A stretch of 64,000 nt of DNA from a virus. Of this stretch, positions 12,309-64,000 are shown piece after piece. The DNA lies in IMG/VR virus record IMGVR_UViG_3300025133_000026. One strand, written 5' to 3'. Position 1 is the first letter of the stretch. Every line of letters starts with the position of its first letter. The notes beneath the pieces are model-generated. The model saw only the letters and a list, made by a program, of their open reading frames with translations. It did no database searches and had not been told where the DNA came from. The position numbers were made by a program, and so were the translations under genes.

Positions 12309-12366
12309 TATGATTTCCTAACAACTTTTTAATTTGACTTGCAAGCACTCTGAGTCTATCACTCAT

Positions 12367-25307: not shown

Positions 25308-28300
25308 ATTTACGACGCTCTCTATTTAGCTCTGCTGGAGATAAGACTCTTCTCCTGTCCTCTATTCTACTATTAATACTTGTTTTATTGAGTCGTTCTC
25401 TTAAGGCTTGATGAAAACCTCCCATATTTATTCTGCTCATGTCATCTCGAATACTCATCCTTGTTGATGTGCCCTGTCTAGACAAGGACATGCGTGGTTG
25501 ATGGAATTGACTATCTGGTAAAAAGTCTGTGCTTCCAACGGGCTGATGAATAGACATTTGAGGCTCTTGTGAGCGCTGCGCATTTAGTAATTCTCCAGAG
25601 CGAATTGCATTAAGAATACGGGGGTCTACCTTCTCACCCTCTGCAAGCAAAGGCTGGGGTGAATACCCTGGATCGCCCAGCAACCCAAAGGCCAAGGCTG
25701 AACCTGCGAGACCTAATAGAATAGGGGCTCCGAAGAATCTGTCTCCAAGTTTACCCGCTGCTCGTCGCGCTCTGTCTCCAAGCTCTGTATTGATTGCTTC
25801 TATTGTTTCTCTCGATGCACCAGCAGCTTCAGCTTCTCCAAGCATAGCAGCAAGTACTGCAGAACCAGGGTCTCCGCTTTTCTTGGCAAGTTCTCGGGCT
25901 TTTATTAAGCCTTCAACGCTAAGATCTCTGCCGTGCTGCTCTCTCTTTCTTCTGTATACATCAAAGACTTTTCGATCATCCGAACCGAGATAATCCCCGA
26001 AAGTATTAACAAGCTTATGAAAATAGTCATCATCTACTTTCAAGGTTCTTGTCTCTCCATCGCCCACCGAATAATCAATTCCCGTCGCAAGTTCTTCAGG
26101 AATTAATTCCTGAGATAGGTGAGAGATAAATTTAAGAATATCAGGATCTCGTCCACCACCTGAAGACAATGCTGATGCCAAGTCTCGTGAAAGAGTCGGA
26201 GCTCTCTCTAGCTTCTTAGCCTTGAGGGTACCTGTTTCCTCTGCGACGGCAAGAAGGTTTACAGTTCGAGAAATAAAGTCTTGATCTTTAGACTGGGTGA
26301 GAACCGCATACTTGACTTCTTCAAGGGCTCTTGAAAGTGGCCCAATATCTTTACTGTATCTTTGCTTATAGGCTGCCCGACTAAGACCACCCATTGCTGC
26401 TTGGCTATTGACTTGTTCCATCTGTTTCTTTAGAACTTTGGAAAGAATTTGTTGCTCTGCAGCTCGTGCTTCAAACTGTTGTTCGAACTTTGCCCATCCG
26501 GCTTTGTTTTCTGTCATTATCGAAATTGCATTTTTCTCTTGCATTATTTTGATAGCAACCATATCTTTGTCAAAGTCAAGGGTCATACCAGGAGCCATAC
26601 CGAGATCTGCCTCAATTGTGCCTCCTAGAAGTTGTTTGGCGGACTCATTGAGAATATTAATATTCTTCATTCTGTTCTGTATCACAACACGACTAGAAGA
26701 ATCTGCTGTTTCCAGACCTTGATGAACTCGTAAATAAACAGGCTGGGTTGATTGTTCTCCGACTGTTGGGAAACGCCAAATCATTCCAGCCATTGATGAT
26801 TCACCCTTCATAAAGGCTTTTTTCGAAACAGCATCAAGCTTGGCTCCTCTTGTTAAGTTTCGTGCTTGGTTTTGAGAAAGAAAGACTGTTCTCTTTAACT
26901 CACCAGGGTCTACTTGATCTAAAGTTCCCAAAAGATCTTCTCCAATTGTTCTTCCGGCAGCAGCCCATTCGTCACTACCTTTCCCTGCCTTAAGAACTAA
27001 ATCTAGATCAGAAACACCAGCCGCCTGAACAAAAGAAGAGGCTGGCCCAAGAGAGTTGACGGTTATTCTTTTGTCTGCAGCTAAAGAATACTTTGCCATA
27101 CTCGTCTTCAGTTTCTTGGCAAAATAGCGTGCTTCTTCTGGAGACTTCGCATCTCTTAATCCTGAAACATTTCTTGTTATCTCTTTTGTTATATGTCTAA
27201 AGTCAACTCGACCACTATTCTTTTGTCTATAATATCCAACACCAGTTTCAAGAGACTCTTCTCCAGGAAGCATAAAACGTTCAGGAACAATATCAGCAAC
27301 AGCATCGACTTGAGAGGGAGAAACTTTTCTTAGATCTAAAAGGAAGTCTTTTTTAGGATAAAGGCGCTCCTTGTCAAGCAAGAGAGAGTCGGCATACCCC
27401 ATGACATTCATAGACTCACTTGGAAGCTTACCTCCATGGAGACTACTGAGAGATCTCCTTAGAGTAGCTGCCATTCTCACAGCACCTCTGTTTTCTCCAG
27501 AGATTGCAGACATAAGGTCTTGAATCATCGCAGAAGAGAGGTCTTTGTCTCCCAGTTTCCAGCCGGCAGTCATCAAACCATCAAGACTGCGAGCTTCGAG
27601 TGTTGCAAATCGACCTTTGTTAAGCGTCGGGTCATCAGCAGGGACTAAAGCACCCCAAGAGATGACCCCACTAGCTTGCTCAATACTTGTCATTACTTGC
27701 TTTCTTTCTGCAACAGAAAGACCAACATCTTTTAGAAGACCGCCGAACTTTTTAGCTCCAAGAACTTTAGCCGCACCCTTAAAGGCTGTGCCTGTCTGGA
27801 GCGCACTTCCGAAAACACCAATTTCTCGTGCTTCTAAAAGAGCAGCCCTCATGAAGTCTTCAAGTGTGCCAGCAGCCCCTTTGGCCATCTTGCCTTGAAG
27901 ATAATCCAGAGGAGATACCCCTAGAATTCCCTTCATTTTTTGTCTTCTGTCGGACTCAGCCGAAAGTGTTGCTGATGCCCAGTACTTCAATGCACCTGCT
28001 ACCTGTCTTTTAACACCGTAGGCACCTTGTTTTACAGATGTCGCGCTGGTGGTTACTGCCTCTACTCCTTGTGATAAAAGTTTATAATCAGCGCTATCTG
28101 CATCTGCTGGATTAATGCGGCCGAGAATCGTACCCATCATTTTGTCATCAATAAATTTAAGAGTAGTTTTCCAGCCACCACTAATACCTTGTTGTAGTTT
28201 GGTTCCTTCTCCAAGACCAAAGATACGTTGCATCTGGAGAACTCTGTTTCCAGCCTCGTCTGTTGTTACTCCAATAAGCCTGTCTTGCATTCTTCGTCCT

Positions 28301-30762
28301 CGAACGGAAAAGATCGGCTTTCCAGTCTCTGCATCAAGACCCAAGAAAACACCTTTTGGCAAATCCATATCAGGAAGACCTTGCTTTAGATAATCATCTA
28401 CAAAAGGTGAAGAAACTCCAGCGCCAACAACTCTTTGAGTATGAGGCGAAGCAAACCGTATTCCGTACCCACCTTTAGATGTTCTTGTTTTAAACTTCTC
28501 ATGAAGATACATTTCACCCTCAAGCAAAGAAAGGTTCTTCTCAAGAGTCATCACTTTCTTATCATCAATGACTTCAAAAGTTAATGCATGTGGGTTTAGG
28601 TAACCATATTTTCCGAGCAGCTCTTCTTCAAATTTGGCCCCAGGGTTTACTGGCATCCAACGGTTAAAAGCCTTCAAAGGTCCGCCTCGCATCGCAGCGC
28701 CCTTGTTCTTATCTAATTTCCACCCACCGTTAATGTGCGGACTAATGCCTTGTCCTGTTTGTACTTCTGTAGGAAGTACAACTGATATCTCTCTGAAGCT
28801 TTGATAGGGTCGTGACAATACAAAAGGCTCCATCTCTGCTTGTAAAACCTTTCCACTTGGACCAGCAAGAGCCTCTTCTGAAGGAAGTCCAGAATACCAA
28901 TCATAAGCAAGACGATTTTGCTTGTTGGTCATGATAAACATACCTTCCGCTGTTTGCTCAGGACCCATCAAGTGCACATTTGGTGACCCACCAAGGCGGG
29001 CCACGATTTTGTCTTTATCTTTTGTATAAAGTTTATTGTTAACATCTTCATAGATTTCTCTAGACACAGCAAGATTAGACTGAAGAACATTCTGTAATTC
29101 TGCCCCACTTGTTGAGCCAGGAGTGATGTAGCGAGAGAATTTTGAAATTCTCTCCATTCCGGATCTTAGAATACTTCGTCGCTCCCAGGGTCGAGTCTGG
29201 GGAGAAAGAATTCTTCCGAAAATATCTCTTCCTGCTTCCCATAGAGCAGTGCGTCCAGACACACTTTTTTCAGCACCCTCTATTCCAACCCTTGACATTG
29301 TATAAGCACTGCCATTAGAAGTTAAATAAGTACTCCCTGCATGTTTTCCTGGGAGGATCATTTCAAAAGGTCGGTGCGTCCCTTCCATAAACAACCGAAC
29401 ACGGAAGTAATTGCCAGGGTCAGAAGTATGCAAAGCACCTTGACGAAACAGAGTATCAACTTCAAGAGAAGCTCCTGTGGGTAATTGGTCAAGGCCAAGT
29501 CGTCTTGCTACTAGTTTTCTTTCTATATCTGTAGTAGCGCGGGATGAGACACCAGTACCACCGAATCCTTTGTTACTTGGAAGAGGAGTGCCTCCATTTT
29601 TCAAATTGTCATGAAGAGTTATCATTAGCTCTGCATCTAATGCAGCATACTGCATTTGCTGAGCAGATAAAGGCCTGAGGCTCCAGTCTGACTGTTGGTA
29701 AAGTTTTTCTACCCTAACCCCCATCTCTCTCTCAACCAAAGCGGCAAGACTATGGCTATAACCTTTTGTCTTGCCATATTTTTGCTGTGAGGCATCAAAA
29801 GTATCAAACACATTGTCAAGCTGTATACCAGCTTTTTCAAGAACTTCTTTTTCAAACTTAGAATAGTGGATTACTTTTGTTGCTGGCCCTTCCAAGATAG
29901 GCTTCAATACTTCTAAAGAAGAAAGTGTTTTCGCATCAATAATCCAAGTTCCTTCATTTGTCGCTAACTGAACGGTAGATATTTGTTTTGTTCCAAAAGT
30001 CTCAACATCGAGACCAAAAACCTCTACACCTTGAACACTTTTAACAAACTCTCCAACAGCTTGGGCACCAGAGAGAAACTTGACAGGCTTCGTCGTTTTT
30101 GCTGTTGGCAGAACGGGGGCTGGTAATGAGTAATCTCTTCGAGCCGCCCCCATGCCTTGAGAAAGTCCAGTAAACGAGATGTGTTCAGCTGAAACCCCGC
30201 CTCTTTTCAAGCTCTTTAGTTTCCCAAAAACACTACGATGACTGATTCCTTGGATTCTTAAAAACTCTCCTATTTCATTAGCACTAGCACCAGAGAGATA
30301 TCTGGCAGCATCAGCCATTGTATCCATCTTTCTGTTGTGGGTAGGGTCAAGCATTGTTGAGAATGCAGCCAAGCGAAGAAGAGGAAGTTCTTTTGCTGAG
30401 GTTTTCTTAGAAAAGTCTATAACTTCTTTTGCTAAACTAGCATCGTGCTGTGCGCTGCTGTGCCGTTGAAAACGCCCGGCGGTCTCAGCGACTAAACTCC
30501 CCAAGTCACGGAAGCCTCGTGATTTACGAGAAGGTAAGGTTAAGCTTGGTCGCGATGGAGTAGGAGAAGGCAGATTCCCCTCTTTCGTTGTTGTAAAAAG
30601 ACTGTCCGTCCATGCTCCAATATCTTTAAGAGCGTCAACAACCTCGTCTTGATTTCGAGAAATAGTCCATGCTGCGGCACCCAATGCAGGAGCCATTCCA
30701 ACTATAGTGCCCATGCTGGAGAAAATGCCGCCTAAGCCTGATTGTTCTAAATCATTGCTCAT
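25300..30762 (-). CDS. Putative single-chain two-barrel (DPBB) virion RNA polymerase with embedded DEDDy 3'-5' exonuclease (1820 aa)
   Basis: DFDKD (26563-26577) preceded by WRFPT (about 26764-26778) parallels beta-prime R-x-P...DFDGD. GTKLQQGISGGWKTT (about 28150-28215) parallels beta GDK...GNKG. Exonuclease motifs are LDVET, HYSKFE and YAALDA (about 29595-30030). Confidence 0.7.
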   Translation of the reverse strand: MSNDLEQSGLGGIFSSMGTIVGMAPALGAAAWTISRNQDEVVDALKDIGAWTDSLFTTTKEGNLPSPTPSRPSLTLPSRKSRGFRDLGSLVAETAGRFQRHSSAQHDASLAKEVIDFSKKTSAKELPLLRLAAFSTMLDPTHNRKMDTMADAARYLSGASANEIGEFLRIQGISHRSVFGKLKSLKRGGVSAEHISFTGLSQGMGAARRDYSLPAPVLPTAKTTKPVKFLSGAQAVGEFVKSVQGVEVFGLDVETFGTKQISTVQLATNEGTWIIDAKTLSSLEVLKPILEGPATKVIHYSKFEKEVLEKAGIQLDNVFDTFDASQQKYGKTKGYSHSLAALVEREMGVRVEKLYQQSDWSLRPLSAQQMQYAALDAELMITLHDNLKNGGTPLPSNKGFGGTGVSSRATTDIERKLVARRLGLDQLPTGASLEVDTLFRQGALHTSDPGNYFRVRLFMEGTHRPFEMILPGKHAGSTYLTSNGSAYTMSRVGIEGAEKSVSGRTALWEAGRDIFGRILSPQTRPWERRSILRSGMERISKFSRYITPGSTSGAELQNVLQSNLAVSREIYEDVNNKLYTKDKDKIVARLGGSPNVHLMGPEQTAEGMFIMTNKQNRLAYDWYSGLPSEEALAGPSGKVLQAEMEPFVLSRPYQSFREISVVLPTEVQTGQGISPHINGGWKLDKNKGAAMRGGPLKAFNRWMPVNPGAKFEEELLGKYGYLNPHALTFEVIDDKKVMTLEKNLSLLEGEMYLHEKFKTRTSKGGYGIRFASPHTQRVVGAGVSSPFVDDYLKQGLPDMDLPKGVFLGLDAETGKPIFSVRGRRMQDRLIGVTTDEAGNRVLQMQRIFGLGEGTKLQQGISGGWKTTLKFIDDKMMGTILGRINPADADSADYKLLSQGVEAVTTSATSVKQGAYGVKRQVAGALKYWASATLSAESDRRQKMKGILGVSPLDYLQGKMAKGAAGTLEDFMRAALLEAREIGVFGSALQTGTAFKGAAKVLGAKKFGGLLKDVGLSVAERKQVMTSIEQASGVISWGALVPADDPTLNKGRFATLEARSLDGLMTAGWKLGDKDLSSAMIQDLMSAISGENRGAVRMAATLRRSLSSLHGGKLPSESMNVMGYADSLLLDKERLYPKKDFLLDLRKVSPSQVDAVADIVPERFMLPGEESLETGVGYYRQKNSGRVDFRHITKEITRNVSGLRDAKSPEEARYFAKKLKTSMAKYSLAADKRITVNSLGPASSFVQAAGVSDLDLVLKAGKGSDEWAAAGRTIGEDLLGTLDQVDPGELKRTVFLSQNQARNLTRGAKLDAVSKKAFMKGESSMAGMIWRFPTVGEQSTQPVYLRVHQGLETADSSSRVVIQNRMKNINILNESAKQLLGGTIEADLGMAPGMTLDFDKDMVAIKIMQEKNAISIMTENKAGWAKFEQQFEARAAEQQILSKVLKKQMEQVNSQAAMGGLSRAAYKQRYSKDIGPLSRALEEVKYAVLTQSKDQDFISRTVNLLAVAEETGTLKAKKLERAPTLSRDLASALSSGGGRDPDILKFISHLSQELIPEELATGIDYSVGDGETRTLKVDDDYFHKLVNTFGDYLGSDDRKVFDVYRRKREQHGRDLSVEGLIKARELAKKSGDPGSAVLAAMLGEAEAAGASRETIEAINTELGDRARRAAGKLGDRFFGAPILLGLAGSALAFGLLGDPGYSPQPLLAEGEKVDPRILNAIRSGELLNAQRSQEPQMSIHQPVGSTDFLPDSQFHQPRMSLSRQGTSTRMSIRDDMSRINMGGFHQALRERLNKTSINSRIEDRRRVLSPAELNRERRKYE

Positions 30763-44032: not shown

Positions 44033-45271
44033 TTAAACTACAGCGGTAGTAGCAGGAATTTCAGCAACCTCGCCAGATACAGTCTGCGTTAGCTGTGCCG
44101 GAAGAACGATCTGGTTGGGAACAACCTTAACATTCTTGGCGACTGCAATGGCAAGACCCTCATTATAGATACCAATGCCGTAACGTTCACGAAGCTTAAT
44201 CTTGCGGACATCGACACGAGGATCACTCCATTCATCGGTCGTAAGAGCTTCATCAACAAGCATTGCACCTAGCTCGCCTGACTGGAATACAACTACATCA
44301 GTAAGTAGAGTATCCGGATCAAATGGCATGAAGGGGCTAACAATTACTCGGAATGGGAAGGGCATGTAGCTCGGAAGAACGGGAGCACCAGTGGCATTCT
44401 GGTCATAGTCATTGACTCCAGAAGCACTTTGTGAACCAGCGTTTCCACCGGGAACGATATCACGACCACCACTTAGACCAAGCTTACCTTGGGGACCATT
44501 CTGGATCGGGTAACGAGCAGCGGGGGAACCCTGCCATCGCTGGAAGAAGCTTCCACCACCTGACTGTAGCGCGAAAGAACGCATAGTCGGATCCTTAACC
44601 CACATTAGCCATGTAAGCGGGTGAACAAGAATGGTATCAGGAACGAAGCCCTGATGGATAAGTTGTGCCATCATGTCGAAAAGGTCATCCATTATCATGG
44701 AACCATTCGCAGCACCAGCTAGGCCACGTCCAGTGGTTACACCGTGTGAACTAGTTGTGGGGTCAGCGTTATCGAATACCTTAACACCTAGCGAAAGGAC
44801 GTGTTGGAAGATCTTGGTTTCTTTGTGACGAGCCATCGCACGACCAGCTTGTCTCATGTATAGACCCATGAGATCAAACTGACTGTAGCGAATCATCTCT
44901 TCAGTGAAACCAAAAGCCATACCAACCTTACCTACGTTAGCGGTAACCGTCGCACCGCCAATCTGGGGCTGGTGCTCTGGGTACTCTTGACCTTCTGCAA
45001 TATCGTCAGCAGTCATTGCACCCATCGCTGGGAAAACAATTGACTGGCCATACTGATACGGAATCTGATCTAGCAAACTGGTACCGACAAGGAGAGGCTC
45101 TTGTGCCTCTTGGATGATCTGGACTACAACCTTAGGAAGTAGGGGGCCAGCATTGGATGTATTTAGAACATCCATCATCTCAAATCTTTTACCAGTCACG
45201 AGATCGAGTCCGCCACTCTGTAGAATAGAGCGAGCATGGTTCGTGTCTTTAAATTCAAAACCGGACATCAT
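44033..45271 (-). CDS. Major capsid protein, HK97 fold (412 aa)
   Basis: IAEGQEYPE, KVGMAFGFTEEMIRYSQFD, GRAMARHKE, PDTILVHPL, KLRERYGIGI; follows the protease and decoration genes. Confidence 0.9.
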   Translation of the reverse strand: MMSGFEFKDTNHARSILQSGGLDLVTGKRFEMMDVLNTSNAGPLLPKVVVQIIQEAQEPLLVGTSLLDQIPYQYGQSIVFPAMGAMTADDIAEGQEYPEHQPQIGGATVTANVGKVGMAFGFTEEMIRYSQFDLMGLYMRQAGRAMARHKETKIFQHVLSLGVKVFDNADPTTSSHGVTTGRGLAGAANGSMIMDDLFDMMAQLIHQGFVPDTILVHPLTWLMWVKDPTMRSFALQSGGGSFFQRWQGSPAARYPIQNGPQGKLGLSGGRDIVPGGNAGSQSASGVNDYDQNATGAPVLPSYMPFPFRVIVSPFMPFDPDTLLTDVVVFQSGELGAMLVDEALTTDEWSDPRVDVRKIKLRERYGIGIYNEGLAIAVAKNVKVVPNQIVLPAQLTQTVSGEVAEIPATTAVV

Positions 45272-53260: not shown

Positions 53261-53880
53261 TATCTGTTAATCCTATTCATTTTCTTGGATTGATTAGAAG
53301 AGCCCAGCAGGGAGTGTGCAGCAGAAGCACCGACACCAGTGGCTGCAGCTAATCCTGTTCCTGTTCCTCCAGCTGCCCATGCAATCATCGTTGAGTATCC
53401 TCCACGTTGCTGTTGTTTAGAAAGTAAATTTACACGCCGGCGAGCAGTTTTTTTTACTATCATCTTTCTGTATTGTCCTGAGAGAGTTTTCCTTCCTACT
53501 CCAGCACCAATAGCCCCCATTGTAAAGTTAAGGAGTCCAGAATCGGTTGGGCTCATAAAAGTATTCGCAAGACCACCAACAGCCATTGTCGTAATCATAC
53601 CACCATGTGTTGCCCAAATACTTTGATGGTTTTTGTGCATAAACCTCATGGCTTGTCCTCCAGCTTTCCAGGCCGGTCGCGCATATTTTAATGCGCTAAC
53701 GCCAAGAGCTGTTTTGGCTCCCATACTAGCGCCAGAAACAAAGCCAGTTCCAAACTTATCGTTCCACACACCAGCCGCAAAGCCGCTCGCGAGTCCGGTA
53801 CCTAGAGCGGCACCAGCCGTAACGATTCCAGTTTTTATACCTGCTTGAACAATACTTCTGCTTACAATAGGAGAAATCAT
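53260..53880 (-). CDS. Gly/Ala-rich basic hydrophobic protein, possible ejection/internal head protein (206 aa)
   Basis: Composition; Gly-zipper-like helices. Confidence 0.4.
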   Translation of the reverse strand: MISPIVSRSIVQAGIKTGIVTAGAALGTGLASGFAAGVWNDKFGTGFVSGASMGAKTALGVSALKYARPAWKAGGQAMRFMHKNHQSIWATHGGMITTMAVGGLANTFMSPTDSGLLNFTMGAIGAGVGRKTLSGQYRKMIVKKTARRRVNLLSKQQQRGGYSTMIAWAAGGTGTGLAAATGVGASAAHSLLGSSNQSKKMNRINR

Positions 53881-56800
53881 TAGATCTTACCTCTCTTGGG
53901 CTTCCCTCTTCTTCGAATACCAGAAGATCTAGAGGTAGCTTTCTTAGTGTGTTTCCATTCGGTATCCGAACCCCATCCGGATCGAATGGTACCAGCATGG
54001 CCTTGGGGGGTCCTTTCAAAAGACCTTCCTCCAGGTTGTGCTTGTCTTCGTTGATGTTCTCTCTGTTGAACGTAACCAGGATCATAATTTACTTCTAAAA
54101 ACCCTGGCATCCCGGCACCGCCAGGAAAGTTCTTTTTAAAGTCATCCATTGCCTCTTTCGGCAGCGGACCATCATTATTAGCAAACCTTGCGCCGATGCC
54201 CTCTGTAAAGCCAACATTTGGACTACTCATAAGTCGGGGTGCATAATCAGACATCTCTAAAATATAAGCGATTAGGGCAAGATTAAGAGCATCGAGTCGG
54301 TGATCTCCAACCTTCGCATCGTTCATGCCATACCTTGGAATACCAGTAGGACTGATCCCGTCTTGAATGTAATTTAAAAGCTGTTTGTGAAGAGTAATGT
54401 CTTTATAAGAAAAACGAATTCTTCCTTGTTCGAATTGTCGGACTGAGTTTTGGATAAGAAAAGCCTTTGCATGTGTCTTCTCTCTTCTTCTTGTTACAGG
54501 ATTTCTGTATTCAACCTTACTTCCGAAATCATAAGCCTTTAGACGATCATAAAGAGCAGCACCTTCCGATCCTGGGTTCACAAACCTTTGTTTATGAGAC
54601 CATGCTTGCAAGGATTCAATCTGCGACCCGCCATAACCTCTATCGACATAGATGAATTTGGGAGACCACTTTTGATTCAAATCAATAATGACTTCCATTG
54701 CTTTGTGCTGTTGATAATTTTGTTTAGAGATATTGACAGCTTCAACTACCCAGAATTCAAAGTCTGGTGCATCAGGGTTTAGTCCAGTTACAACTACCTC
54801 TACTCCTGCATTTGTGTTCCAATCAACACCTATAGAGTAAATCCAAGACGGTTCTCTGCGATTAAGAGAATACTTCTTATCTCCAACTGTTACCTTTGCT
54901 ATCTGTCCATAAGAATATGGCTTCTCTGCTTCTGCAACATGGCGTGGAGAATACATACCAGCAACCTGGTCAATAAATACAGCCATGTATTCTTGCATGA
55001 AGGAGGTTTCGTCGGTTCCCTCGGCTTCAATTTCATCTTTAACTTGATCCCAGTGATCAAGGACCGTAGACGGAAAGTAGAATTCTTTGACATGTGCTGA
55101 GCCTGTGCACTGGTTATAGAACCACTCTCTCTTACCTGTAGGTGTACTGGAGGACATAACAGCAACATCCGGTGTTGTCGCCTGGATAGGCTGAACAACC
55201 TGCTTAATGTCCTCTGCAGGCATGAAGTCGGCCTCGTCAAGAAGGATGAGATCTGCCGAATTGTGGACCACAACTCCATCATTAACTATAAAGTTGTGTG
55301 TGCCCCAAACCTCTATATCATAAAGTGTATCAACCCCTTTGCTTTTGATAGACTTGATAGCATCATAACGAAGATCATTAAAACTCATATTCGGAAAGCC
55401 CGCACTGTTTGCTAACGATAAGATTTCTTTAGACTTTTCTTCTTTCCCAGGAATAAGTCCGATAGACTTTAGAAGTCGCTTTGCTTCATTCACAGAACGG
55501 ATAGTAACCACATATTGTCTTTTGTGTTTCTTGCCCTTTAGGTATTTTTCTCTAGTTCGTAAAGTTCCGAAAACACCAAAGCTGGTCACTAGTTGCAAAA
55601 ACTGAGAGGCCAGATCACAACTTGTAGATGTAAACCCTATCTCAACTTGTTTGTTCTTAGCAACAAGCCAGCCATCTGTAGCTATTAGGCCTCTTAATAG
55701 AGCTGCTCTAACTGCAGGACCAGAGGCCAGGAGCTTAGAAGACAACTTCTTCTCTGGGGCTAGACTTCCCCATATTCCAGCATCGTCTAAAAGCTCTGCA
55801 ATTTCTATATTTCTAGTTCGTGGTGCCTTGATACGAATATCAACTGCTTTTGAGTTTTCCTTTTGGTAACTACTCCAGTCTACGTCCCAATTATCGAGAA
55901 TTGAACAAAATAAAGATTCGATTCTTTTATTAGCGACAGTAAATCTAACCGAACTGTGTTTTATAGCTTTTCTTCCACAACTTCCATCACCAGCCATTAG
56001 GCCAACAAACAGTGCTTCCTCTTCTGTGAAATGAACACCCTGTTTGTCAAGAGTGAAATTCTTTACTGTAGCAAGATGATTACTCTTTTTTAAATCTTTC
56101 AGTTTATTCCAAGAAAAGGTAGATTTCCCTAATTCAGAATATTTCTTTCTTATTCCTCGAGTAACAGTGCTGCTCAGAAGCCTGTGATCTTTTGAACAAA
56201 CAAGACTTCGGCCAGAGCGTAACCGAACTTCATATTTTTCCTTCTCTGTAGTATCAAACACTTTGGAAACCATAGAGGTGACTACCTTTCCATTGTTTGT
56301 TACAGAGAGGATGAGGTCATTCTTCTCGATATTAGAAATCTTCTTTCGTGACCCATCGGCCATCCAAACAAGAGTTTCTCCAGAAAGACACTGTCCACGA
56401 AGAGTGGACGCATTCTGTCCTGTACTAGCTCCTGTGGTGAAGCCCTTGATTGTTGCACCATTAGTAAAGACAAGCTCATGATAGGGAGTCTTTACGTTCC
56501 TCACAAGCTTAATGTCTGGATTTCTCGAAACAAGCTTCTTGATCTCTTCGAAAATCATAGAGATTTGAGCCAAGAATGGAGATACAACTAAAATCCGAGG
56601 GCCTCTCATGATCGGGGTGCCAGCGGCATCCACCTCATCACTTTTAACATAGGCGGTAATTGCTTTTCTAAGAGTAGAGACACACTCTTCGAATGTCTTT
56701 CCAGAACGCCGGCCAGCTCTCGATACTCTGTATTTTGCGGTACATTTAGCGACCACCCTCTGGTGATCACGAAAGTCTACACCCAGGACTTTTTTAGCCC

Positions 56801-57407
56801 AGAGGACAGGGTCTCTTACAATTCTCAATTGTTCTATTTCTTCTTCTGTCAGTTCTTTGACTAGTTCTCTTTTTAAATCATAACTTTCAGGAATAAAATC
56901 ACACTTGACAAGAAAGGCAGTTAATGCTTTCCAAGGAATCCATCCTTCGATCTTCTGGGTTCTGCTCGAAAAGCCACCCTTGCATGTCTGGCATACAGCA
57001 TCAGAGATTTGTTGCTTACTTTCTCGATAGACCCTTGTGTGGTCTTGGTCATTTTGACAAATACCATAATAAACAGAAGTTCCCACCAAGCATTTGTCTT
57101 TGTGCTTTTCTTTCAGAATTACTCTCTGGCCTTTGCGCAGTCGCCCAATCTTTTCTTTGAATTGATCATCCCCAAAAACGTTTACTCCCCTTACAGAAAT
57201 TTGGTATTCATTCCTTCCAGCATATTTTTGCAAGTGATCCATCTGACAAACTACACAGGAATTGTCAATATTCTTCGTTTTAATATTGTATTTTTCTTTG
57301 AAAAACTCTACCAAATCAGAACTAGGACGCATAGAATAGTCTAGGTAAGCTACCCCGTATTCGTTCTCCATGTAAAGATATTTCATATCCTCGTGAAGAT
57401 AGTCCAT
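53880..57407 (-). CDS. terL: Terminase large subunit with intein (1175 aa precursor)
   Basis: Walker A VSRAGRRSGKT; Walker B LILLDEA restored after splicing; FMQEYMA; nuclease IGVDWN and DHRLDAL. Confidence 0.95.
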   Translation of the reverse strand: MDYLHEDMKYLYMENEYGVAYLDYSMRPSSDLVEFFKEKYNIKTKNIDNSCVVCQMDHLQKYAGRNEYQISVRGVNVFGDDQFKEKIGRLRKGQRVILKEKHKDKCLVGTSVYYGICQNDQDHTRVYRESKQQISDAVCQTCKGGFSSRTQKIEGWIPWKALTAFLVKCDFIPESYDLKRELVKELTEEEIEQLRIVRDPVLWAKKVLGVDFRDHQRVVAKCTAKYRVSRAGRRSGKTFEECVSTLRKAITAYVKSDEVDAAGTPIMRGPRILVVSPFLAQISMIFEEIKKLVSRNPDIKLVRNVKTPYHELVFTNGATIKGFTTGASTGQNASTLRGQCLSGETLVWMADGSRKKISNIEKNDLILSVTNNGKVVTSMVSKVFDTTEKEKYEVRLRSGRSLVCSKDHRLLSSTVTRGIRKKYSELGKSTFSWNKLKDLKKSNHLATVKNFTLDKQGVHFTEEEALFVGLMAGDGSCGRKAIKHSSVRFTVANKRIESLFCSILDNWDVDWSSYQKENSKAVDIRIKAPRTRNIEIAELLDDAGIWGSLAPEKKLSSKLLASGPAVRAALLRGLIATDGWLVAKNKQVEIGFTSTSCDLASQFLQLVTSFGVFGTLRTREKYLKGKKHKRQYVVTIRSVNEAKRLLKSIGLIPGKEEKSKEILSLANSAGFPNMSFNDLRYDAIKSIKSKGVDTLYDIEVWGTHNFIVNDGVVVHNSADLILLDEADFMPAEDIKQVVQPIQATTPDVAVMSSSTPTGKREWFYNQCTGSAHVKEFYFPSTVLDHWDQVKDEIEAEGTDETSFMQEYMAVFIDQVAGMYSPRHVAEAEKPYSYGQIAKVTVGDKKYSLNRREPSWIYSIGVDWNTNAGVEVVVTGLNPDAPDFEFWVVEAVNISKQNYQQHKAMEVIIDLNQKWSPKFIYVDRGYGGSQIESLQAWSHKQRFVNPGSEGAALYDRLKAYDFGSKVEYRNPVTRRREKTHAKAFLIQNSVRQFEQGRIRFSYKDITLHKQLLNYIQDGISPTGIPRYGMNDAKVGDHRLDALNLALIAYILEMSDYAPRLMSSPNVGFTEGIGARFANNDGPLPKEAMDDFKKNFPGGAGMPGFLEVNYDPGYVQQREHQRRQAQPGGRSFERTPQGHAGTIRSGWGSDTEWKHTKKATSRSSGIRRRGKPKRGKI
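55260..56390 (-). mobile_element. Intein with LAGLIDADG homing endonuclease (377 aa) in terL
   Basis: N-splice LRGQ/CLSGETLVWMADG; C-splice YDIEV...NFIVNDGVVVHN/SAD; LAGLIDADG blocks FVGLMAGDGS and LLRGLIATDGW. Confidence 0.95.
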
Positions 57408-58704: not shown

Positions 58705-60794
58705 CTACCTCCTTTTGAATGTCCTATAGGGGATTTTAACATGCGCAATGCAGCATCCTTCTGAAGACGAGACATCTTCTGTTTTCTAAGGTTTGTTTTT
58801 CTTAGAAGATTTTGTCTTCGAATCTTCTCTGGGTCATTGCCCAATAGATTCATTCTTCTTTTTATCGGCTTTTCAAGAAGTGTTTTTCTTACCCCAAGCC
58901 CGCCCGGCAGTGGCGGCAATTTGTTTAATTCCTCTGCCGCTGTCTTGGCTGCTCTCCTGATGGGTTCGGGGTAAGTTTGAAAACTATCTTTGTTTTTTCT
59001 AAAAAAGGATAAAAGGAATCCCTTTATTTGGCTTGACACCCCCTCAGACCTTAATTCTTTTCTAAACTGAGGGTAGCCACCAAAAATAAATCCTCTTTCT
59101 TGTTCTTGTCCAACAAGTGCTAAAAATTCATGATGAGCTGCAATACCAGACTCTGTTGAGTTTCTGGTTTTTGTATTCCAACGCCAAGCATCTTCAATGA
59201 TTTCACTGATGTCGGCATCTTTGACAAAACCCTCTAGGAAAGTTTCTTCCCTGGCTCCAGTGCGTTTTCTAGGCTGACTCCAAAAATGTTCCCTTACTTT
59301 TTGGTGCACTCTTTCATGGGCAATAATTTGCCTGAGCTCTTCTCCTCGAAGATCTTTTCTGATTAATGAAAAAGTATTAAATCCAGACTTTTCTGCTTCG
59401 AAAATGGAAGAGAACAAAGAAGAAACTTCTTCTTGTAGTTTGCTGCCTTGCTTTACATCTACTTCCGATAATCGTTTTTTTAAGGTTGGCAATAAAAAAG
59501 ACAGACCCTTTGACCCTTTTCCTAAAGCTAAGCGTTGTGATAATTCTATAGAAATGGAACTTATCCCTCTCCAGCCACTACCAAACTCTGTCATCCCTTT
59601 ACGCATACCCTGGGCCCAGCCCTTATGGCTAAGCCCCTCTAGAGTATTGCGATTACTCTGGTGTCCAGAAAACGCTGCTCTGTTATGTCCACCTCTCGAA
59701 AGATTACCGAGAGACTCAAAGACAGAAAGATCTTCTGTAGTCATATATCCTTTAGCTTCGATATCCCATAGACTAAACATAATTTCAGCTTGAGTCTTAT
59801 CTTCTGCTAACCGATTCATAAGAGTATAAGTATTGAAGGTTGTGTGCTTTCCTGCTCTCTTGTCTACCTTCTGTTGGGCTTGCCAGAAGGCATGCCCCCA
59901 CATTCCCTTTTCTGTCTCGATCGCCTCGTTCCATTTTTTATAGAAGTTGCGTCTATCGATAATGGATTGTTCTGCTCTACCAAAAGGCAAATAAGACGCA
60001 GAGCCCTCGCCAACAAGACGGAGGTTGATATTCTGTCCTTGTTCGTCATAGACAACACCAACGGCACGTCCATAAGTCTCATCTTCTGGATCAAAGATAA
60101 TTGTAATATTATCTTGACTGTCAAGTATTTCCTGGAATCTTTCTCCAGCATTCTTTCCATATGGCTGGCCCCCAGCAATACGAACAGGAGACATTGGGTC
60201 AGAGTCGTGAGACTCTACTTCGGGAGCATCAATACCAGCAAGACGAATAGAGACTGCTTTTCCTGTCGGAGTTCCGAGGAGTCCTCTTTTCTTAATGAGC
60301 AGGGTGTCTGCATCTTCCGCTTTTAGTTCGTATTCGTCTTTATTCAGGGTTACATAATGAAGATCTTTCTTTGTTCCCTGGTTCAAACCTTCCCAAGTGC
60401 CGTATTCTTCATCATGAAGAGCAAGAGGCCCAAGAGTGTTGATAGAAGCAAGTTGCAGTCTTGCTTCTCGTTGCTTGGATTCAATTTCTTGTTCTAGCAA
60501 ATATCTGCGAGCGGGATCTTGCCAAATAGTTTTTTGGAATCTTTTCAGCTTCGCCCTTGGATCATCTGAGTTATAAACACCAATAATAGCGTTATATAAG
60601 CCCTGCCAGCCACTGCCAAATTGAGAATTTACTTTTCTCATAGCAGCAGCCATGCCTCCATGGATGAGGCCACTTATTTGCAGATGAGAATCTCCCCGCG
60701 TAGCGGGGCGGCGCACCTGTTCCCAAGCGTCGATCATTGTGCTCGCGCCTAGTATTTTCCCTTTTCGATTTTCATGATTAATCCAATTGAACAT
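58701..60794 (-). CDS. Polyvalent-type protein: SNase (thermonuclease) domain plus HExxH metallopeptidase-like domain (697 aa)
   Basis: DADT...RLAGIDAPE...TYGRAVG...NINLRLV.EG.A (SNase); IIAHERVH (59304-59318) with downstream HEFLA; two FGSGW-ending repeats. Confidence 0.75.
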   Translation of the reverse strand: MFNWINHENRKGKILGASTMIDAWEQVRRPATRGDSHLQISGLIHGGMAAAMRKVNSQFGSGWQGLYNAIIGVYNSDDPRAKLKRFQKTIWQDPARRYLLEQEIESKQREARLQLASINTLGPLALHDEEYGTWEGLNQGTKKDLHYVTLNKDEYELKAEDADTLLIKKRGLLGTPTGKAVSIRLAGIDAPEVESHDSDPMSPVRIAGGQPYGKNAGERFQEILDSQDNITIIFDPEDETYGRAVGVVYDEQGQNINLRLVGEGSASYLPFGRAEQSIIDRRNFYKKWNEAIETEKGMWGHAFWQAQQKVDKRAGKHTTFNTYTLMNRLAEDKTQAEIMFSLWDIEAKGYMTTEDLSVFESLGNLSRGGHNRAAFSGHQSNRNTLEGLSHKGWAQGMRKGMTEFGSGWRGISSISIELSQRLALGKGSKGLSFLLPTLKKRLSEVDVKQGSKLQEEVSSLFSSIFEAEKSGFNTFSLIRKDLRGEELRQIIAHERVHQKVREHFWSQPRKRTGAREETFLEGFVKDADISEIIEDAWRWNTKTRNSTESGIAAHHEFLALVGQEQERGFIFGGYPQFRKELRSEGVSSQIKGFLLSFFRKNKDSFQTYPEPIRRAAKTAAEELNKLPPLPGGLGVRKTLLEKPIKRRMNLLGNDPEKIRRQNLLRKTNLRKQKMSRLQKDAALRMLKSPIGHSKGGS

Positions 60795-61068
60795 TGCCTA
60801 GCATCATTTTTTTATATTCGACTTCTAAAATTTGATCTTGCCATTGCTGCTTGCTGAGTCGACGCCCACGGAAGTAATACTCAGGGCCCTCCGGTGCGTC
60901 CTTTCCAGTAACTGCGGGCCCTGAAGTACTATGAGTCAATCCATCCTGATAGTGCATAATAAAGTCCTGATCTAAAAACACAACTGCTGGCCAACCATTT
61001 GGGGCGTCTTCTAAACACCCTTCTTGATTGAAAGTATAAATGGCATTGCCGTCAAGAACTTGTTTCAT
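60778..61068 (-). CDS. Small phage protein with LHR-x-DGPA-like repeat (96 aa)
   Basis: HYQDGLTHSTSGPAV...EYYFRGRRLSKQQW. Confidence 0.55.
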   Translation of the reverse strand: MKQVLDGNAIYTFNQEGCLEDAPNGWPAVVFLDQDFIMHYQDGLTHSTSGPAVTGKDAPEGPEYYFRGRRLSKQQWQDQILEVEYKKMMLGNVQLD

Positions 61069-61082
61069 TTTTCTCCTGGTGA

Positions 61083-61892
61083 CTATTCATCATCAAAAAC
61101 ACTGAGTTCTTCGTATTCTACATCTAGAGCTTCAAGCTTTTGAATCTTCTCACTGAGTTCACTCATAGTCTTGGCAACATCAGTCTGCCAGCCTTCGTCT
61201 CCTTGCTTTAGCTTGGCTCTTGCATCTATCTTGTCTTTCCTGGTTGCAACCATAGACTTAAGGAGGTCTTGACGCATTCTATGAATCTTCTCTTTGAGAT
61301 CAAAGGCAGGGTGAATCTTAAGAGTAGTAAACTCCTCTTTGGTTATTGGGTCTTGCCCAATAGTCTCTTCTCTTAGAAGAGAACCTGCTTCATCTTTAGC
61401 TAGGAGTGCAGAAGCTCTGTAGTCGTAGATATCTAATGTAGCTATCTTAGTAACTATGGCTAAGTCTGTAGTATTCTCGGGGTTGATCTCGAACTCTTTA
61501 ACGAGGTCCATTATGTGAAGCTGAAGAATCTCTCTTTCGACAGGACATGCCCGCGCTAGAGGGAAGTGTGTGCTATTAAAGTCTGTCTGGTTAGTTGTGG
61601 GATCTTTCACCACTAAAGGACACTTATGAATAACCGGGCATTTGGGACCTGCACATATAAGAGGGACAACAGCATGCAAACCAGTCCTTAAACTAATTAT
61701 ATGATTCCGATATCTTTCTGCAGTTTCAGCATCCATGGGTACATTGTCATACTTGTCCATAGATAGCCCCAGGAACTTGTAGAACTGGTCTTTGTCTACT
61801 GCCCTTACCTGTGTAAGGTCTTTACTCACGGAGGCGATAGAGAGGGTACTGAGAGCTTCCTGTGGGGTGTTCTTGTTGTCGTCTTTACTCAT
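61083..61892 (-). CDS. Possible terminase small subunit, Cys-cluster protein (269 aa)
   Basis: ICAGPKCPVIHKCPL...CPVE, helical body and C-terminal coiled coil; upstream of terL. This is inference from synteny only. Confidence 0.35.
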   Translation of the reverse strand: MSKDDNKNTPQEALSTLSIASVSKDLTQVRAVDKDQFYKFLGLSMDKYDNVPMDAETAERYRNHIISLRTGLHAVVPLICAGPKCPVIHKCPLVVKDPTTNQTDFNSTHFPLARACPVEREILQLHIMDLVKEFEINPENTTDLAIVTKIATLDIYDYRASALLAKDEAGSLLREETIGQDPITKEEFTTLKIHPAFDLKEKIHRMRQDLLKSMVATRKDKIDARAKLKQGDEGWQTDVAKTMSELSEKIQKLEALDVEYEELSVFDDE

Positions 61893-62130
61893 TCTCTAAT
61901 TCCTTGACAAGATCTGTTAATTCTTGGTTTAATGTGCGCAAATACTTGACAAAGTCTTCTTTCTCAGAGTGTCCAAAGAACTCCTTGGTCTTCTTAGCAT
62001 ACCTGCAGGCTTTACCTAGAGTAGAGCTATCTACAAAGCCTTTATATCTATAAACATGAGTACAGTTGTTCCACTTAGAGAAACCTTGTACAAGAGAGCT
62101 AAATCTGTACATCAGATCATCTGTAGGCAT
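61885..62130 (-). CDS. Hypothetical protein (81 aa)
   Basis: ORF track; GGAA SD; fills the gap in the operon. Confidence 0.5.
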   Translation of the reverse strand: MPTDDLMYRFSSLVQGFSKWNNCTHVYRYKGFVDSSTLGKACRYAKKTKEFFGHSEKEDFVKYLRTLNQELTDLVKELENE

Positions 62131-62787
62131 TTATTTTCCTTCCGCGAAGCGAAATACACCAGAGGGGAGAAGATAGGCGGCGGTGTTACCACTACCAACG
62201 AGAGGAGGTGTAGTCTCTTCTAATAGTTTTGTTCTGACTCTTCCTCTTTTATCAATAGAAGTGTCTCTTACTTGACCGTAGGTCAGGCCTCTATGATAGG
62301 AAGGGAGGGCGATATGGACATAGTCCATTCCTAATTCTTTGTTAAAACAGTAAGAAAGCTCACCATAAAAGAGATGTATCTTCCTACAGTATTCCCAAAC
62401 ATCTCTAGCTGGAACTCCGGGAACTAAGAAATTGGCCGCGGAGCCAGTGGTATGCAAAGAAGAACCATCATATTCTCTGAGTTGTCTGTCTCTCAGGCCC
62501 CAGATGTCAAGACCTTTATAGATAACTTCTTTGTTTTTTTTATCTATAGACCTTTCTACCCAAGACATACCCTTGAGGACGACCAAAGGCCGTCCATAAA
62601 AATCAATAATAGGTTCGAGAAGATCCTCACACAAAGAAGCAAGATTGTATCTATAGTTGTTACCCCAGAGAAAGTTCTTATCTTCAAGATTGCCACCCGC
62701 AGGGGTGTGACATAAGTCCCAAAGACTAATATGGGCAGAGAGCATGTCAGCTTGGGTAAATAACCATTTGTTTTGAGTTCCTAACAC
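62131..62787 (-). CDS. Peptidase M15A-like protein, possibly degenerate (218 aa)
   Basis: LCEDLLEPI...YGRPLVV, SSLHTTGSAANF, YVHIA; GTG start with GGAGG SD. Confidence 0.6.
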   Translation of the reverse strand: MLGTQNKWLFTQADMLSAHISLWDLCHTPAGGNLEDKNFLWGNNYRYNLASLCEDLLEPIIDFYGRPLVVLKGMSWVERSIDKKNKEVIYKGLDIWGLRDRQLREYDGSSLHTTGSAANFLVPGVPARDVWEYCRKIHLFYGELSYCFNKELGMDYVHIALPSYHRGLTYGQVRDTSIDKRGRVRTKLLEETTPPLVGSGNTAAYLLPSGVFRFAEGK

Positions 62788-62821
62788 AGTCTGACCTCCT
62801 GGGAAAATATATGTTACATAG

Positions 62822-62832
62822 ATTTTATACCA
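62822..62832 (-). promoter_or_regulatory. Possible extended -10 element (TGgTATAAAAT) for the leftward operon
   Basis: Motif in the AT-rich divergent gap about 35 nt upstream of the first minus-strand gene; no convincing -35. Confidence 0.25.
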
Positions 62833-63029
62833 TATGCTGGAAACTTAGAAAAAATATATGAAAAATAGAGAATAAAAATGAAATGACTTTATAGAAAGGC
62901 GAAAATGCAAGAAATCAAAAAGAAGTGCTCTATAGGAAGGTGAAATTGTGGGGAAAATATAGGAGTAGGTATGATAGATGGGTGAGTTCCGTACTCTCGA
63001 GTTTGGAGCCCACCCCCTCTCTCACCCCA

Positions 63030-63117
63030 GTGTCCACCCCCGGACACACGCCTCTGTGCTCACCACACAGAGGTCTCTTCCCCTTCGTCTATGCCTTGGG
63101 TGAGCAAGGCAATGGAG
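63030..63117 (+). promoter_or_regulatory. Structured leader unit 0 (sequence-divergent, same kissing-loop architecture)
   Basis: Stem cctctgtg/cacagagg with loop CTCACCA; 18-nt linker; stem tgccttg/caaggca with loop GGTGAG; then ATGGAG SD. Confidence 0.75.
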
Positions 63118-63123
63118 TACAGC

Positions 63124-63327
63124 ATGTCCTCGGATATGTTCTACCGCCTCGTCCAGCTCCGGCTGGAAGCAGAGACCCGCAAGAACTCTTCGGAGTTCTT
63201 CCGGGCGCTCTACTTCCTTCGTGCCGCTGTGCACGCGGCAACCCTCGCCGCCACCGACCCCAGGCTGGTGTGGGTTGTCAACCGGCACCTGTACTCGGCT
63301 GAGCTGATCCTCAGCCGAGCGCGGTAG
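63124..63327 (+). CDS. Small hypothetical protein (67 aa, MSSDMFYRLVQLR...)
   Basis: GGAG SD 6 nt upstream of ATG 63124; GC3-rich codons; TAG at 63325-27. The track starts it at 63091, which lies inside the leader hairpin. Confidence 0.7.
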   Translation: MSSDMFYRLVQLRLEAETRKNSSEFFRALYFLRAAVHAATLAATDPRLVWVVNRHLYSAELILSRAR

Positions 63328-63465
63328 TCTTCTGCACTCCCCATCCACACCACACAGGTGTGGGTGGGGAGATCAGAGGGTGAACTCGTCCACCTCTCTC
63401 ATCTTGGTCCTGTCCCAGGATGCCACCTCACCCAGTAACTGCCATTTGACAGGATGGCAATGGAG
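63328..63465 (+). repeat. Structured leader repeat, copy 1 (138 bp)
   Basis: Direct repeat with 63569-63705 and 63835-63973; four hairpins ending at the GGAG SD. Confidence 0.95.
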
Positions 63466-63470
63466 CTCCC

Positions 63471-63563
63471 ATGTCTGACGACATGTTCGAGATCCTCCTC
63501 GCCATGGCTGGCTCAGCCATGGTGACGACGGTCTTTTGGGGGGGCATCTACCTGACTTGGTAG
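63471..63563 (+). CDS. 30-aa predicted single-pass membrane peptide MSDDMFEILLAMAGSAMVTTVFWGGIYLTW
   Basis: SD at repeat end, ATG 5 nt later, clean stop before the next repeat; below the ORF-track size cutoff. Confidence 0.65.
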   Translation: MSDDMFEILLAMAGSAMVTTVFWGGIYLTW

Positions 63564-63568
63564 ATGTC

Positions 63569-63705
63569 TCTTCTGCACTCTCCATCCACACCACACAGGT
63601 GTGGGTGGGGAGATCAGAGGATAAACTCGTCTATTCTCTCATCTTGGTCCTGTCCCAGGATGCCACCTCACCCAGTAACTGCCATTTGACAGGATGGCAA
63701 TGGAG
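63569..63705 (+). repeat. Structured leader repeat, copy 2 (137 bp)
   Basis: Differs from copy 1 only at stem positions, by compensatory or G-U-preserving changes. Confidence 0.95.
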
Positions 63706-63710
63706 TCAAC

Positions 63711-63824
63711 ATGTCTAACAACATCGTTGAGCGCCTCAACCTGGCCATCCTGACGGGTGGTCTGGGCATGATCGTCGCAATCTGCGGCATTCATGCCCTT
63801 GGGGCGGTTCTCCGGGCCATGTAG
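63711..63824 (+). CDS. 37-aa predicted single-pass membrane peptide MSNNIVERLNLAILTGGLGMIVAICGIHALGAVLRAM
   Basis: SD at repeat end; hydrophobic core; stop 10 nt before the next repeat. Confidence 0.65.
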   Translation: MSNNIVERLNLAILTGGLGMIVAICGIHALGAVLRAM

Positions 63825-63834
63825 CCCGGGGAAC

Positions 63835-63973
63835 CTTCTGCACTCCCCATCCACACCACACAGGTGTGGGTGGGGAGATCAGAGGGTGAACTCGTCCACC
63901 TCTCTCATCACAGCTCTGTCCTGTGATGCCACACAACTCAGTAACTGCCATTTGACAGAGGAATGGTTTGGAG
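63835..63973 (+). repeat. Structured leader repeat, copy 3
   Basis: 5' part identical to copy 1; 3' hairpins diverged with compensatory changes. Confidence 0.95.
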
Positions 63974-63979
63974 TACATC

Positions 63980-64000
63980 ATGTTGTACGTGATCAACGCT
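63980..64000 (+). CDS. Start of the next cassette ORF (MLYVINA..., partial)
   Basis: GGAG SD then ATG at 63980; truncated by the window edge. Confidence 0.55.

Follow-up and report, generated by a model that had tools for sequence, protein, structure and literature searches.

Near the right-hand end of a 64,000-nt piece of tailed-phage genome (IMG/VR record IMGVR_UViG_3300025133_000026; we call the whole stretch the window), small open reading frames (ORFs) alternate on the plus strand with tandem copies of a repeat that is conserved as a structured RNA. These repeats are a real and well-supported family of structured RNA in a phage early operon, and they are not a platform for mobile cassettes. 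Our best reading, to which we give a probability of about one half, is that each repeat joins an intercistronic hairpin that processes and stabilises the message, of the RNase III type known from phage T7, to a structured leader for ribosome binding. The array probably opens a GC-rich early operon, next to its promoter, in an uncultured marine tailed phage. Seen directly are the repeats, their folds, their covariation and strand specificity, their placement relative to stop and start codons, and the fact that the array is free of promoters and terminators of the host type.

A sequence-only reading of this DNA had described four consecutive units, each a leader ending in GGAG followed by a short ORF, and this layout stands: the plus strand of the window holds ORFs of 67, 30 and 37 aa and a fourth truncated by the window end, and upstream of every array ORF GGAG is followed by 5 to 6 nt and ATG. 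We likewise agree that three of the leaders are near-identical repeats, with repeat 1 sharing 94% identity with repeat 2 and 84% with repeat 3, and that they begin 0, 5 and 10 nt past the stop codons of ORF1, ORF2 and ORF3, at positions 63328, 63569 and 63835. The repeat unit spans ∼143 nt, with ∼138 nt from its start to GGAG, and the GC content of the units is 49 to 59%. A 39-mer from its core occurs exactly three times in the 64 kb and not once in 100 shuffles. The further claim that the array continues past the window held in part, as two more units (units 4 and 5) were seen, both diverged (∼57% identity) and both read from a co-occurring strain.

The repeat opens with hairpin 1 (HP1), which in repeat 1 occupies positions 63329 to 63379 and consists of a 6-bp lower stem (63329-63334/63374-63379), a 2x2 internal loop, a 15-bp upper stem (63337-63351/63357-63371), and the loop ACACA. 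It lies at 63570 to 63620 in repeat 2 and at 63835 to 63885 in repeat 3. All five copies keep a helix of 21 to 23 bp (6 + 15 bp, up to 8 + 15) with the internal loop at a fixed place between the two stems (CA/AU, or GU/GA in unit 5) and a terminal loop of 3 to 5 nt whose sequence varies. Standard pairs fill 103 of the 103 cells across these copies, five pairs have changed on both sides, and none of our shuffled or slid controls attains such covariation. For every unit the native sequence gives a better fold than any of its 200 shuffles (z-scores from −2.8 to −6.2); the z-score of lead0, the leader of ORF1, is −2.8. The copies contain 1, 2, 2, 4, and 7 G-U pairs, owing to which the complementary strand of the diverged copies folds much worse than the plus-strand RNA (−24.0 versus −31.4 and −14.1 versus −29.5 kcal/mol). 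The G-rich 3′ arm is nearly invariant and the C-rich 5′ arm drifts from C to U, an asymmetry that is expected under selection on RNA pairing. The conserved features of the repeat, namely G-U pairs, compensatory changes, complementary loops, and a folding energy that differs between the strands, are features of the sense-strand RNA.

This strand preference bears on a reading of the locus as an integron-like cassette array with the repeats as attC sites. Tandem small ORFs that are each trailed by a folded repeat do have the general look of such arrays. However, the repeat contains no GTT, so that the GTTRRRY core is absent, and it has no RYYYAAC/GTTRRRY pair; the G-U pairs favor the RNA of the top strand over the bottom strand, whose fold is poorer, and the region consists of phage early genes with their own ribosome sites. 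The sequence-only reading had also pointed to a recombinase or reverse transcriptase as something to look for nearby, but no recombinase, integrase, or reverse transcriptase is annotated in the gene tables, which cover ∼27 kb of the structural flank and ∼30 kb of the early flank. The missing core sites, the wrong-strand fold, and the lack of an IntI-type tyrosine recombinase in these tables effectively refute an attC identity, which we regard as extremely improbable.

HP1 begins 0 to 10 nt past the stop codon of each of ORF1 to ORF5 and is lacking before ORF1, which identifies it as an intercistronic or 3′ element and not as a part of the leaders. Bacterial RNase III acts on helices of about two turns (∼20 bp or more, coaxial stacking being allowed) that contain an internal loop, and internal loops confine its cutting to one strand, leaving a protective hairpin at the 3′ end (PMC1540722). 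In its predicted fold, HP1 offers both the helix length and the internal loop in five of the five copies. A scan with the repeat had been suggested for the rest of the genome; a covariance model of HP1 found no copies beyond the five of the array in ∼94 kb (the window and contigs L037 and L039) of a genome estimated at ∼149 kb from the sum of a 121-kb and a 27-kb contig. A permissive Rfam scan of positions 60000 to 64000 returned only sub-threshold matches to microRNA-like hairpins, the best of which scored 27 bits where the gathering score is 70, and neither a ribozyme nor a riboswitch was matched; no hammerhead core was seen on reading the repeat. The phage GenBank collection held no DNA match to the array or to the neighboring 5 kb, and in IMG/VR we found neither the exact 39-mer nor a close relative of the neighboring 218-aa protein. 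A flank-gap-flank pattern gave 22 single matches in IMG/VR, none with the hairpin of the repeat, and these were set aside as chance.

The remainder of repeat 1 (63379-63465) comprises HP2 (63379-63394), HP3 (63400-63422), HP4 (63440-63459), and GGAG (63462-63465). The corresponding elements are HP3 63640-63662, HP4 63680-63699, and GGAG 63702-63705 in repeat 2 (63570-63705) and HP3 63906-63928, HP4 63948-63966, and GGAG 63970-63973 in repeat 3 (63835-63973). G63379 belongs both to HP2 and to the lower stem of HP1, and the HP2 loop AACUCGUC is kept while the HP2 stem switches from GGUG/CACC to GAUA/UAUU, the form found in repeat 2. HP3 and HP4 sit just 5′ of GGAG-N5/6-ATG, and their loops are complementary. 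In repeat 1 the HP3 loop UCCUGUC faces the HP4 loop UUGACAGG, and the complementarity CCUGUC/GACAGG is common to units 1 and 2 (P ∼1.5e-3); in repeat 3, where HP3 has acquired three compensatory pairs, the loops CUCUGUC and UGACAGAGG match over CUCUGUC/GACAGAG (P ∼2e-4). The leader of ORF1 (62978-63123) folds into hairpins at 63030-63047, 63051-63073, and 63092-63111 followed by GGAG at 63114-63117. Despite its lack of HP1, it keeps the design of the repeat, with two hairpins, complementary loops, and GGAG, and the loops of its last two hairpins pair as CUCACC/GGUGAG (P ∼6e-4) in a sequence that is otherwise unrelated. We considered whether lead0 is a true copy of the repeat and rejected this, since its alignment scores fall within the shuffled range and exceed it only marginally against unit 3. 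Unit 4 has two hairpins before GGAG, and their loops are not complementary. Because the loop pairs cannot be extended into an ordinary helix, an intramolecular kissing contact appears to be the better reading of the HP3 and HP4 loops.

One could go further and regard the HP3/HP4 domain as a sensor of a ligand, of temperature, or of a protein that switches the ribosome site, in which case the array would serve the coordinated translational control of micropeptides and HP1 would be secondary. Loop-loop complementarity is indeed held through three sequence versions, the nucleotides common to the lower stem of HP1 and to HP2 allow two alternative states, and a closing helix can pair with GGAG over 7 bp in lead0, over 5 bp in unit 4, and weakly in units 2 and 3; in lead0 it is GUACUCU (62992-62998) that can pair with GGAGUAC (63114-63120). 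On the other hand, lead0 and the repeats have no conserved junction nucleotide in common, which speaks against a shared ligand pocket; the loops of unit 4 are not complementary, and no Rfam family was matched. We consider a sensor of this kind to be quite unlikely.

Relatives of the phage give some depth to these observations. A distant relative, the 142-kb contig L035, whose neighboring SNase protein is 30% identical to that of the window's phage, has long hairpin-rich leaders between its small early ORFs. A search for the motif CUCCAUCC...GGAG-AUCA located in it a single HP1-like hairpin, CUUCUCCAUCCC-UAAU-GGGAUGGAGGAG followed by AUCA, on the minus strand at 7650 to 7700 and a few nucleotides past the stop codon of the second early ORF (80 aa). 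L035 contains no tandem repeat array, the covariance model of HP1 gave no significant match in the relatives L033 to L036, and the relative L036 has short leaders and ordinary terminators. We conclude that the array itself is specific to the window's phage and that the design and the HP1 motif are older.

Neither a sigma-70-like promoter nor an intrinsic terminator was found within the array, and its units lack an AT-rich upstream element, in agreement with the earlier statement that no sigma-70 promoter is evident. The single sigma-70 match inside the units, TTGACA-18-CATCAT in unit 3, implies a start at or past the ATG. Its TTGACA lies in HP4 and was rejected as a promoter element, given that no usable −10 element accompanies it and that the hexamer is the HP4 loop, whose sequence is explained by loop-loop pairing. 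With neither a sigma-70 promoter nor an intrinsic terminator in the array, the host polymerase would read through. Upstream of lead0, a divergent AT-rich intergenic region (62788-62977) separates the minus-strand structural block, whose last gene spans 62131 to 62787, from the plus-strand GC-rich early region, and it is presumably the site of the early promoter. A plus-strand consensus scan for sigma-70 promoters gave no good site, this region included, and the weak candidate TTGTGG-18-TATGAT ends near 62975.

These results leave room for another reading, in which each unit is an autonomous cassette for pre-early transcription by a virion RNA polymerase of the phage. HP1 would then be a hairpin terminator, a short promoter (GAU[C/A]AG..GGGUGA) would overlap its 3′ flank, and each small ORF would have its own transcript. 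Phage P23-45 provides a precedent, with 14 starts that share one conserved motif and, near the genome end, 7 terminators that share a 26-nt motif (PMC10770324). The window encodes a putative polymerase, an 1820-aa ORF (25300-30762, minus strand) that carries DFDKD at residue 1396, and the HP1 motif shared with the distant L035 fits a sequence-specific reader. The flank motif, GAU(A/C)AG-N0-2-GGGUGA, is weak but occurs in all six units; in lead0 it lies at the start, immediately behind the AT-rich region. Deeper in the island, moreover, a second hairpin family precedes ORFs and one of its copies (L009 8156-8189) ends just before tRNA-Gln, which suggests phage-specific transcription signals.

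The same flank motif, however, overlaps the lower stem of HP1, which covaries with its 3′ partner; as this partner must be part of the upstream transcript, a separate promoter would have little room there. HP1 is missing from lead0, whose resemblance to the flank motif does not reach significance, and we found no motif common to the two AT-rich spacers of the island. The 1820-aa ORF has a DEDDy 3′-5′ exonuclease domain (residues ∼234-389), and its sequence matches among solved structures in the Protein Data Bank are limited to that domain. Transcription of separate cassettes by a virion polymerase is the main rival of our own reading, though we hold it to be rather unlikely. A bolder version makes the units self-contained pre-early cassettes of a phage that injects a tail-borne RNA polymerase, HP1 with its CUCCAUCC...GGAG-AUCA motif acting as a terminator with an overlapping start signal and the kissing-loop domain representing a new class of translational riboregulators that gate the micropeptides of the first minutes of infection; this we judge unlikely.

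The small ORFs themselves indicate how the array arose. ORF1 (63124-63327; 67 aa, MSSDMF...) belongs to no known family. ORF2 (63471-63563; 30 aa, MSDDMF...) and ORF3 (63711-63824; 37 aa, MSNNIV...) encode hydrophobic micropeptides and were called as genes, the former in contig L003 and the latter on several contigs. Together with ORF5 of the co-occurring strain, ORF2 and ORF3 resemble single hydrophobic helices, as judged by eye only. No Pfam or PHROG family was found for any array ORF, nor any homologue of the array ORFs in the loci of the relatives. The sequence-only reading had it that the ORFs share nothing, which is not so: ORF1, ORF2, ORF3, and ORF5 all start with MS(S/D/N/T)(D/N)(M/I), encoded by similar first codons. 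ORF4, which lacks these codons, stands apart. That four out of five ORFs have their first codons in common argues for tandem duplication rather than for the capture of unrelated genes, and the extension of the repeat into the ORFs points to an array that grew, as far as sequences can tell, by tandem duplication of a leader-plus-micropeptide unit. The homology for recombination that DNA repeats provide is a by-product of this duplication.

Contigs overlapping the array were recovered by exact-protein look-ups and one metagenome pattern scan, and they reveal that ORF4 exists in at least two versions. The window holds only its first 21 nt (63980-64000), and two contigs of 27,004 bp, one from the European Nucleotide Archive (ENA) and one from the Joint Genome Institute (JGI), stop exactly at window base 64000. 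Contig L003 (865 bp) runs from repeat 1 through an ORF4 of the window type (allele 4a), and in contigs L004, L008, L009, and L010 an unchanged repeat 3 leads into another ORF4 (allele 4b). These versions share 176 identical nucleotides (window 63825-64000), diverge exactly at the window end, and are from there on ∼58% identical in DNA and ∼45% in protein. Both encode a small Cys-rich protein with the pattern HDCGxCxxC...AYxxLLxLExWAL (L003 652-865; L004 156-455). Since divergent alleles keep one protein pattern, ORF4 is coding and polymorphic, and the window end is an assembly branch point. The alleles lie between identical flanks and were both found in one sample, ERZ27249216. Contigs of several assemblies (MEGAHIT-style k141 and Logan) break at both edges of the variable segment; at the far edge, three assemblies (a 121,378-bp ENA contig and two Logan contigs) begin ∼10 to 16 nt before the stop codon of ORF4b. 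Both breakpoints are within the ends of the ORF, 21 nt past its start and ∼10 to 16 nt before its stop, and not within the repeats. The contigs with allele 4b continue with unit 4 (L004 455-571), ORF5 (41 aa, hydrophobic), and unit 5 (L004 698 to ∼840), behind which no ORF follows but an AT-rich spacer and then an orphan gene for a 715-aa protein at 66% GC. Searches for homologues of ORF4b and of the 715-aa early protein returned self matches only.

This polymorphism favors the notion that the repeats are mobile regulatory cassettes like the PeSLs of T4-type phages, selected because they supply homology by which small genes can be inserted, excised, and shuffled. The sequence-only reading had named PeSLs as the nearest precedent, and the layout bears this out, with a G-U-containing stem-loop that fills the gap from stop to ATG and a Shine-Dalgarno (SD) sequence at its 3′ end, as in PeSLs (PMC2839356). 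The exchange of one ∼45%-identical ORF4 for another between identical flanks, with both alleles in one sample and assemblies breaking at both edges, is also what such cassettes could produce. The precedent fails for the sigma-70 promoter, absent here together with an AT-rich upstream element, and for the dispersed copies, five lying in a single array where PeSLs occupy dozens of dispersed sites. A comparison of cassette order, one of the checks that the shuffling idea invites, found the same ORF order in every recovered contig, with only the ORF4 allele swapped. The breakpoints inside ORF4 and outside the repeats, the elaborate RNA covariation, which homology alone does not need, and the paralogy of four ORFs at their 5′ ends all weigh in the same direction, and we consider mobile cassettes of this kind improbable enough to carry little weight. 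Recombination at the repeats is a plausible side effect and is not what the conserved features encode; shuffling was seen once, at ORF4. Of the earlier proposal that the repeat supplies both expression signals and homology for shuffling, the first half survives in the ribosome site and the conserved RNA structure; shuffling as the main function does not, the conserved features being at the RNA level and a single ORF4 replacement being all that was seen.

We thus return to processing hairpins combined with structured leaders, for which we envisage the following course. One early transcript would start in the AT-rich region at 62788 to 62977. HP1 would be the element that forms 3′ ends, most likely as a substrate of the host RNase III or a similar double-strand RNase, and a single cut at its internal loop would leave the upstream cistron with a protective terminal hairpin and the downstream cistron with its own 5′ end, where HP2 would sit. 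HP3 and HP4, locked by a loop-loop contact of 6 to 7 bp, would form a compact domain 5′ of GGAG-N5/6-ATG that sets the access of ribosomes. The polycistronic transcript, its cleavage, the stabilisation of the products, and the tuning of their translation would all be parts of this scheme.

Several points weigh against it. We infer the cleavage, the operon, and the promoter alike, the covariation rests on only about five distinct sequences, and units 4 and 5 come from a strain that is tied to the window by the 176 identical nucleotides. For an uncultured phage, the antideterminant rules for RNase III are not applicable to HP1. The HP1 motif is kept across phages with only 30 to 40% protein identity, a conservation that exceeds the need of an enzyme reading the shape of a helix and that hints at a sequence-specific reader. 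Finally, if the 1820-aa ORF is a virion RNA polymerase, the early units could be separate transcripts.

Transcript mapping would turn the array into a test bed for how an uncultured phage lineage, possibly with an injected polymerase, segments and times its first messages. The array also raises the questions of whether intramolecular kissing loops beside an SD sequence tune translation and of what effects the three membrane micropeptides have on the host.

The array lies in a distinctive part of the genome. All large ORFs up to position 62787 are on the minus strand, in a block with a GC content of ∼40 to 45% that includes the major head protein (44033-45271) and the large terminase. At ∼62960 the GC content jumps to 58%, and the genes are then on the plus strand. 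A chimeric assembly was rejected as the source of this jump, since the junction is present on several contigs; the neighboring gene is carried by five contigs, contigs from an ENA and a JGI sample both end at 64000, and the 142-kb contig of a relative has an island of this kind as well. The GC-rich island (50 to 66% GC) extends for ∼10.5 kb (window 62960-64000 and L009 1-9500), after which the GC content falls to 38 to 40%. It holds an SSB gene and tRNA-Arg(UCU), tRNA-Gln(UUG), and tRNA-Lys(UUU), that is, tRNAs for A-rich codons. The host is probably itself GC-rich, in which case the first genes would be tuned to its codon use and the phage tRNAs would serve the AT-rich later genes. L035 has a GC-rich island at the same position (3000-8000; 53 to 60% versus ∼36%). 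Within the island, the leader of the 715-aa gene (L009 870-1030; ∼160 nt) has several stable hairpins, so that heavy RNA structure is a general trait of the early island, beyond the repeats.

The second hairpin family of the island numbers 7 to 9 copies in L009 3389-8189. Each consists of the hairpin GGTAGGCC-GAAA-GGTCTACC, in which a G-U pair is conserved, and of a trailing TAAACTTGTGAGAG or a variant of it; several lie shortly before ORF starts. The copy at 8156 to 8189 directly precedes tRNA-Gln (8190-8265), which makes a role in translation less likely, and a transcription or processing signal is the more likely function of this motif.

In the minus-strand block, the large terminase (53880-57407) contains an intein with a LAGLIDADG homing endonuclease, and L035 has the same arrangement. 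A local GC-rich patch at 12001 to 14000 (50 to 52% versus ∼40%) lies over a 369-aa minus-strand ORF (12367-13476) with no Pfam match.

Several known systems resemble parts of the array. The REP and BIME elements of enterobacterial operons are imperfect palindromes, and REPs protect upstream mRNA from 3′ exonucleases. HP1, too, is an imperfect palindrome of ∼35 to 50 nt just past stop codons inside an operon, but REPs are chromosomal, occur in hundreds of dispersed copies, and are mobilised by RAYT transposases, none of which holds for the array. The SAS and ESAS motifs of Cluster K mycobacteriophages, the former 13 nt long and unstructured and the latter containing a 17-bp inverted repeat, are dispersed over the genome. 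They share with the array a conserved motif repeated immediately upstream of several phage start codons, whereas the array consists of tandem 140-nt units with multiple hairpins.

In the Thermus phage P23-45, a virion polymerase fused to the tape measure protein serves pre-early genes that have a conserved promoter motif and the 26-nt terminator motif (PMC10770324). In both phages the first small genes of the early region each have a conserved motif at their borders, and the window's phage may also carry a giant, polymerase-like tail-module protein with a DxDxD motif. However, we found no promoter motif common to all array units, and the P23-45 motif is AT-rich in contrast to the GC-rich, folded units described here. 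PeSLs combine a strong sigma-70 promoter, a stem-loop, and an SD sequence in ∼50 dispersed copies that mark points of insertion and deletion (PMC2839356). Like them (PMC2839356, PMC4122927), the array element fills the stop-to-ATG gap of small orphan early genes, has a stable stem-loop with G-U pairs and ends in an SD sequence and a start codon, and identical flanks surround one variable gene between strains. Apart from the promoter and the copy number discussed above, the array differs in that neither re-ordering nor circles were seen and in having a much more complex structure that is plainly under selection as RNA.

The closest parallel is with RNase III signals. Knowledge of conserved hairpins between the early genes of phages goes back to T7, which places RNase III sites between its early genes (R0.3, R0.5, R1, R1.1, and R1.3), and analogous sites exist in the early mRNA of the Bacillus phages SP82 and SPO1; to our knowledge, few families of such phage intercistronic hairpins have been described. 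As in these phages, related hairpins lie between consecutive early genes, begin right after a stop codon, and consist of a helix that extends over about two turns and is interrupted by an internal loop, and by analogy with T7 a single cut at that loop would make the upstream message end in a hairpin. In contrast to the T7 signals, the cutting of HP1 is a prediction, the first gene has no site, and the unit is much longer (∼140 nt), with a kissing-loop leader before the ribosome site; its copies arose by recent tandem duplication, which also took in the first codons of the ORFs. In sequence the family bears no relation to the T7 signals; it has no Rfam counterpart and appears to be new among T7-type intercistronic signals. 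Its own features are an RNase III-type helix after each stop codon, a two-hairpin domain with loop-loop complementarity that is kept before ribosome sites through three loop sequences, and clear traces of expansion by tandem duplication, with a single hypervariable cassette.

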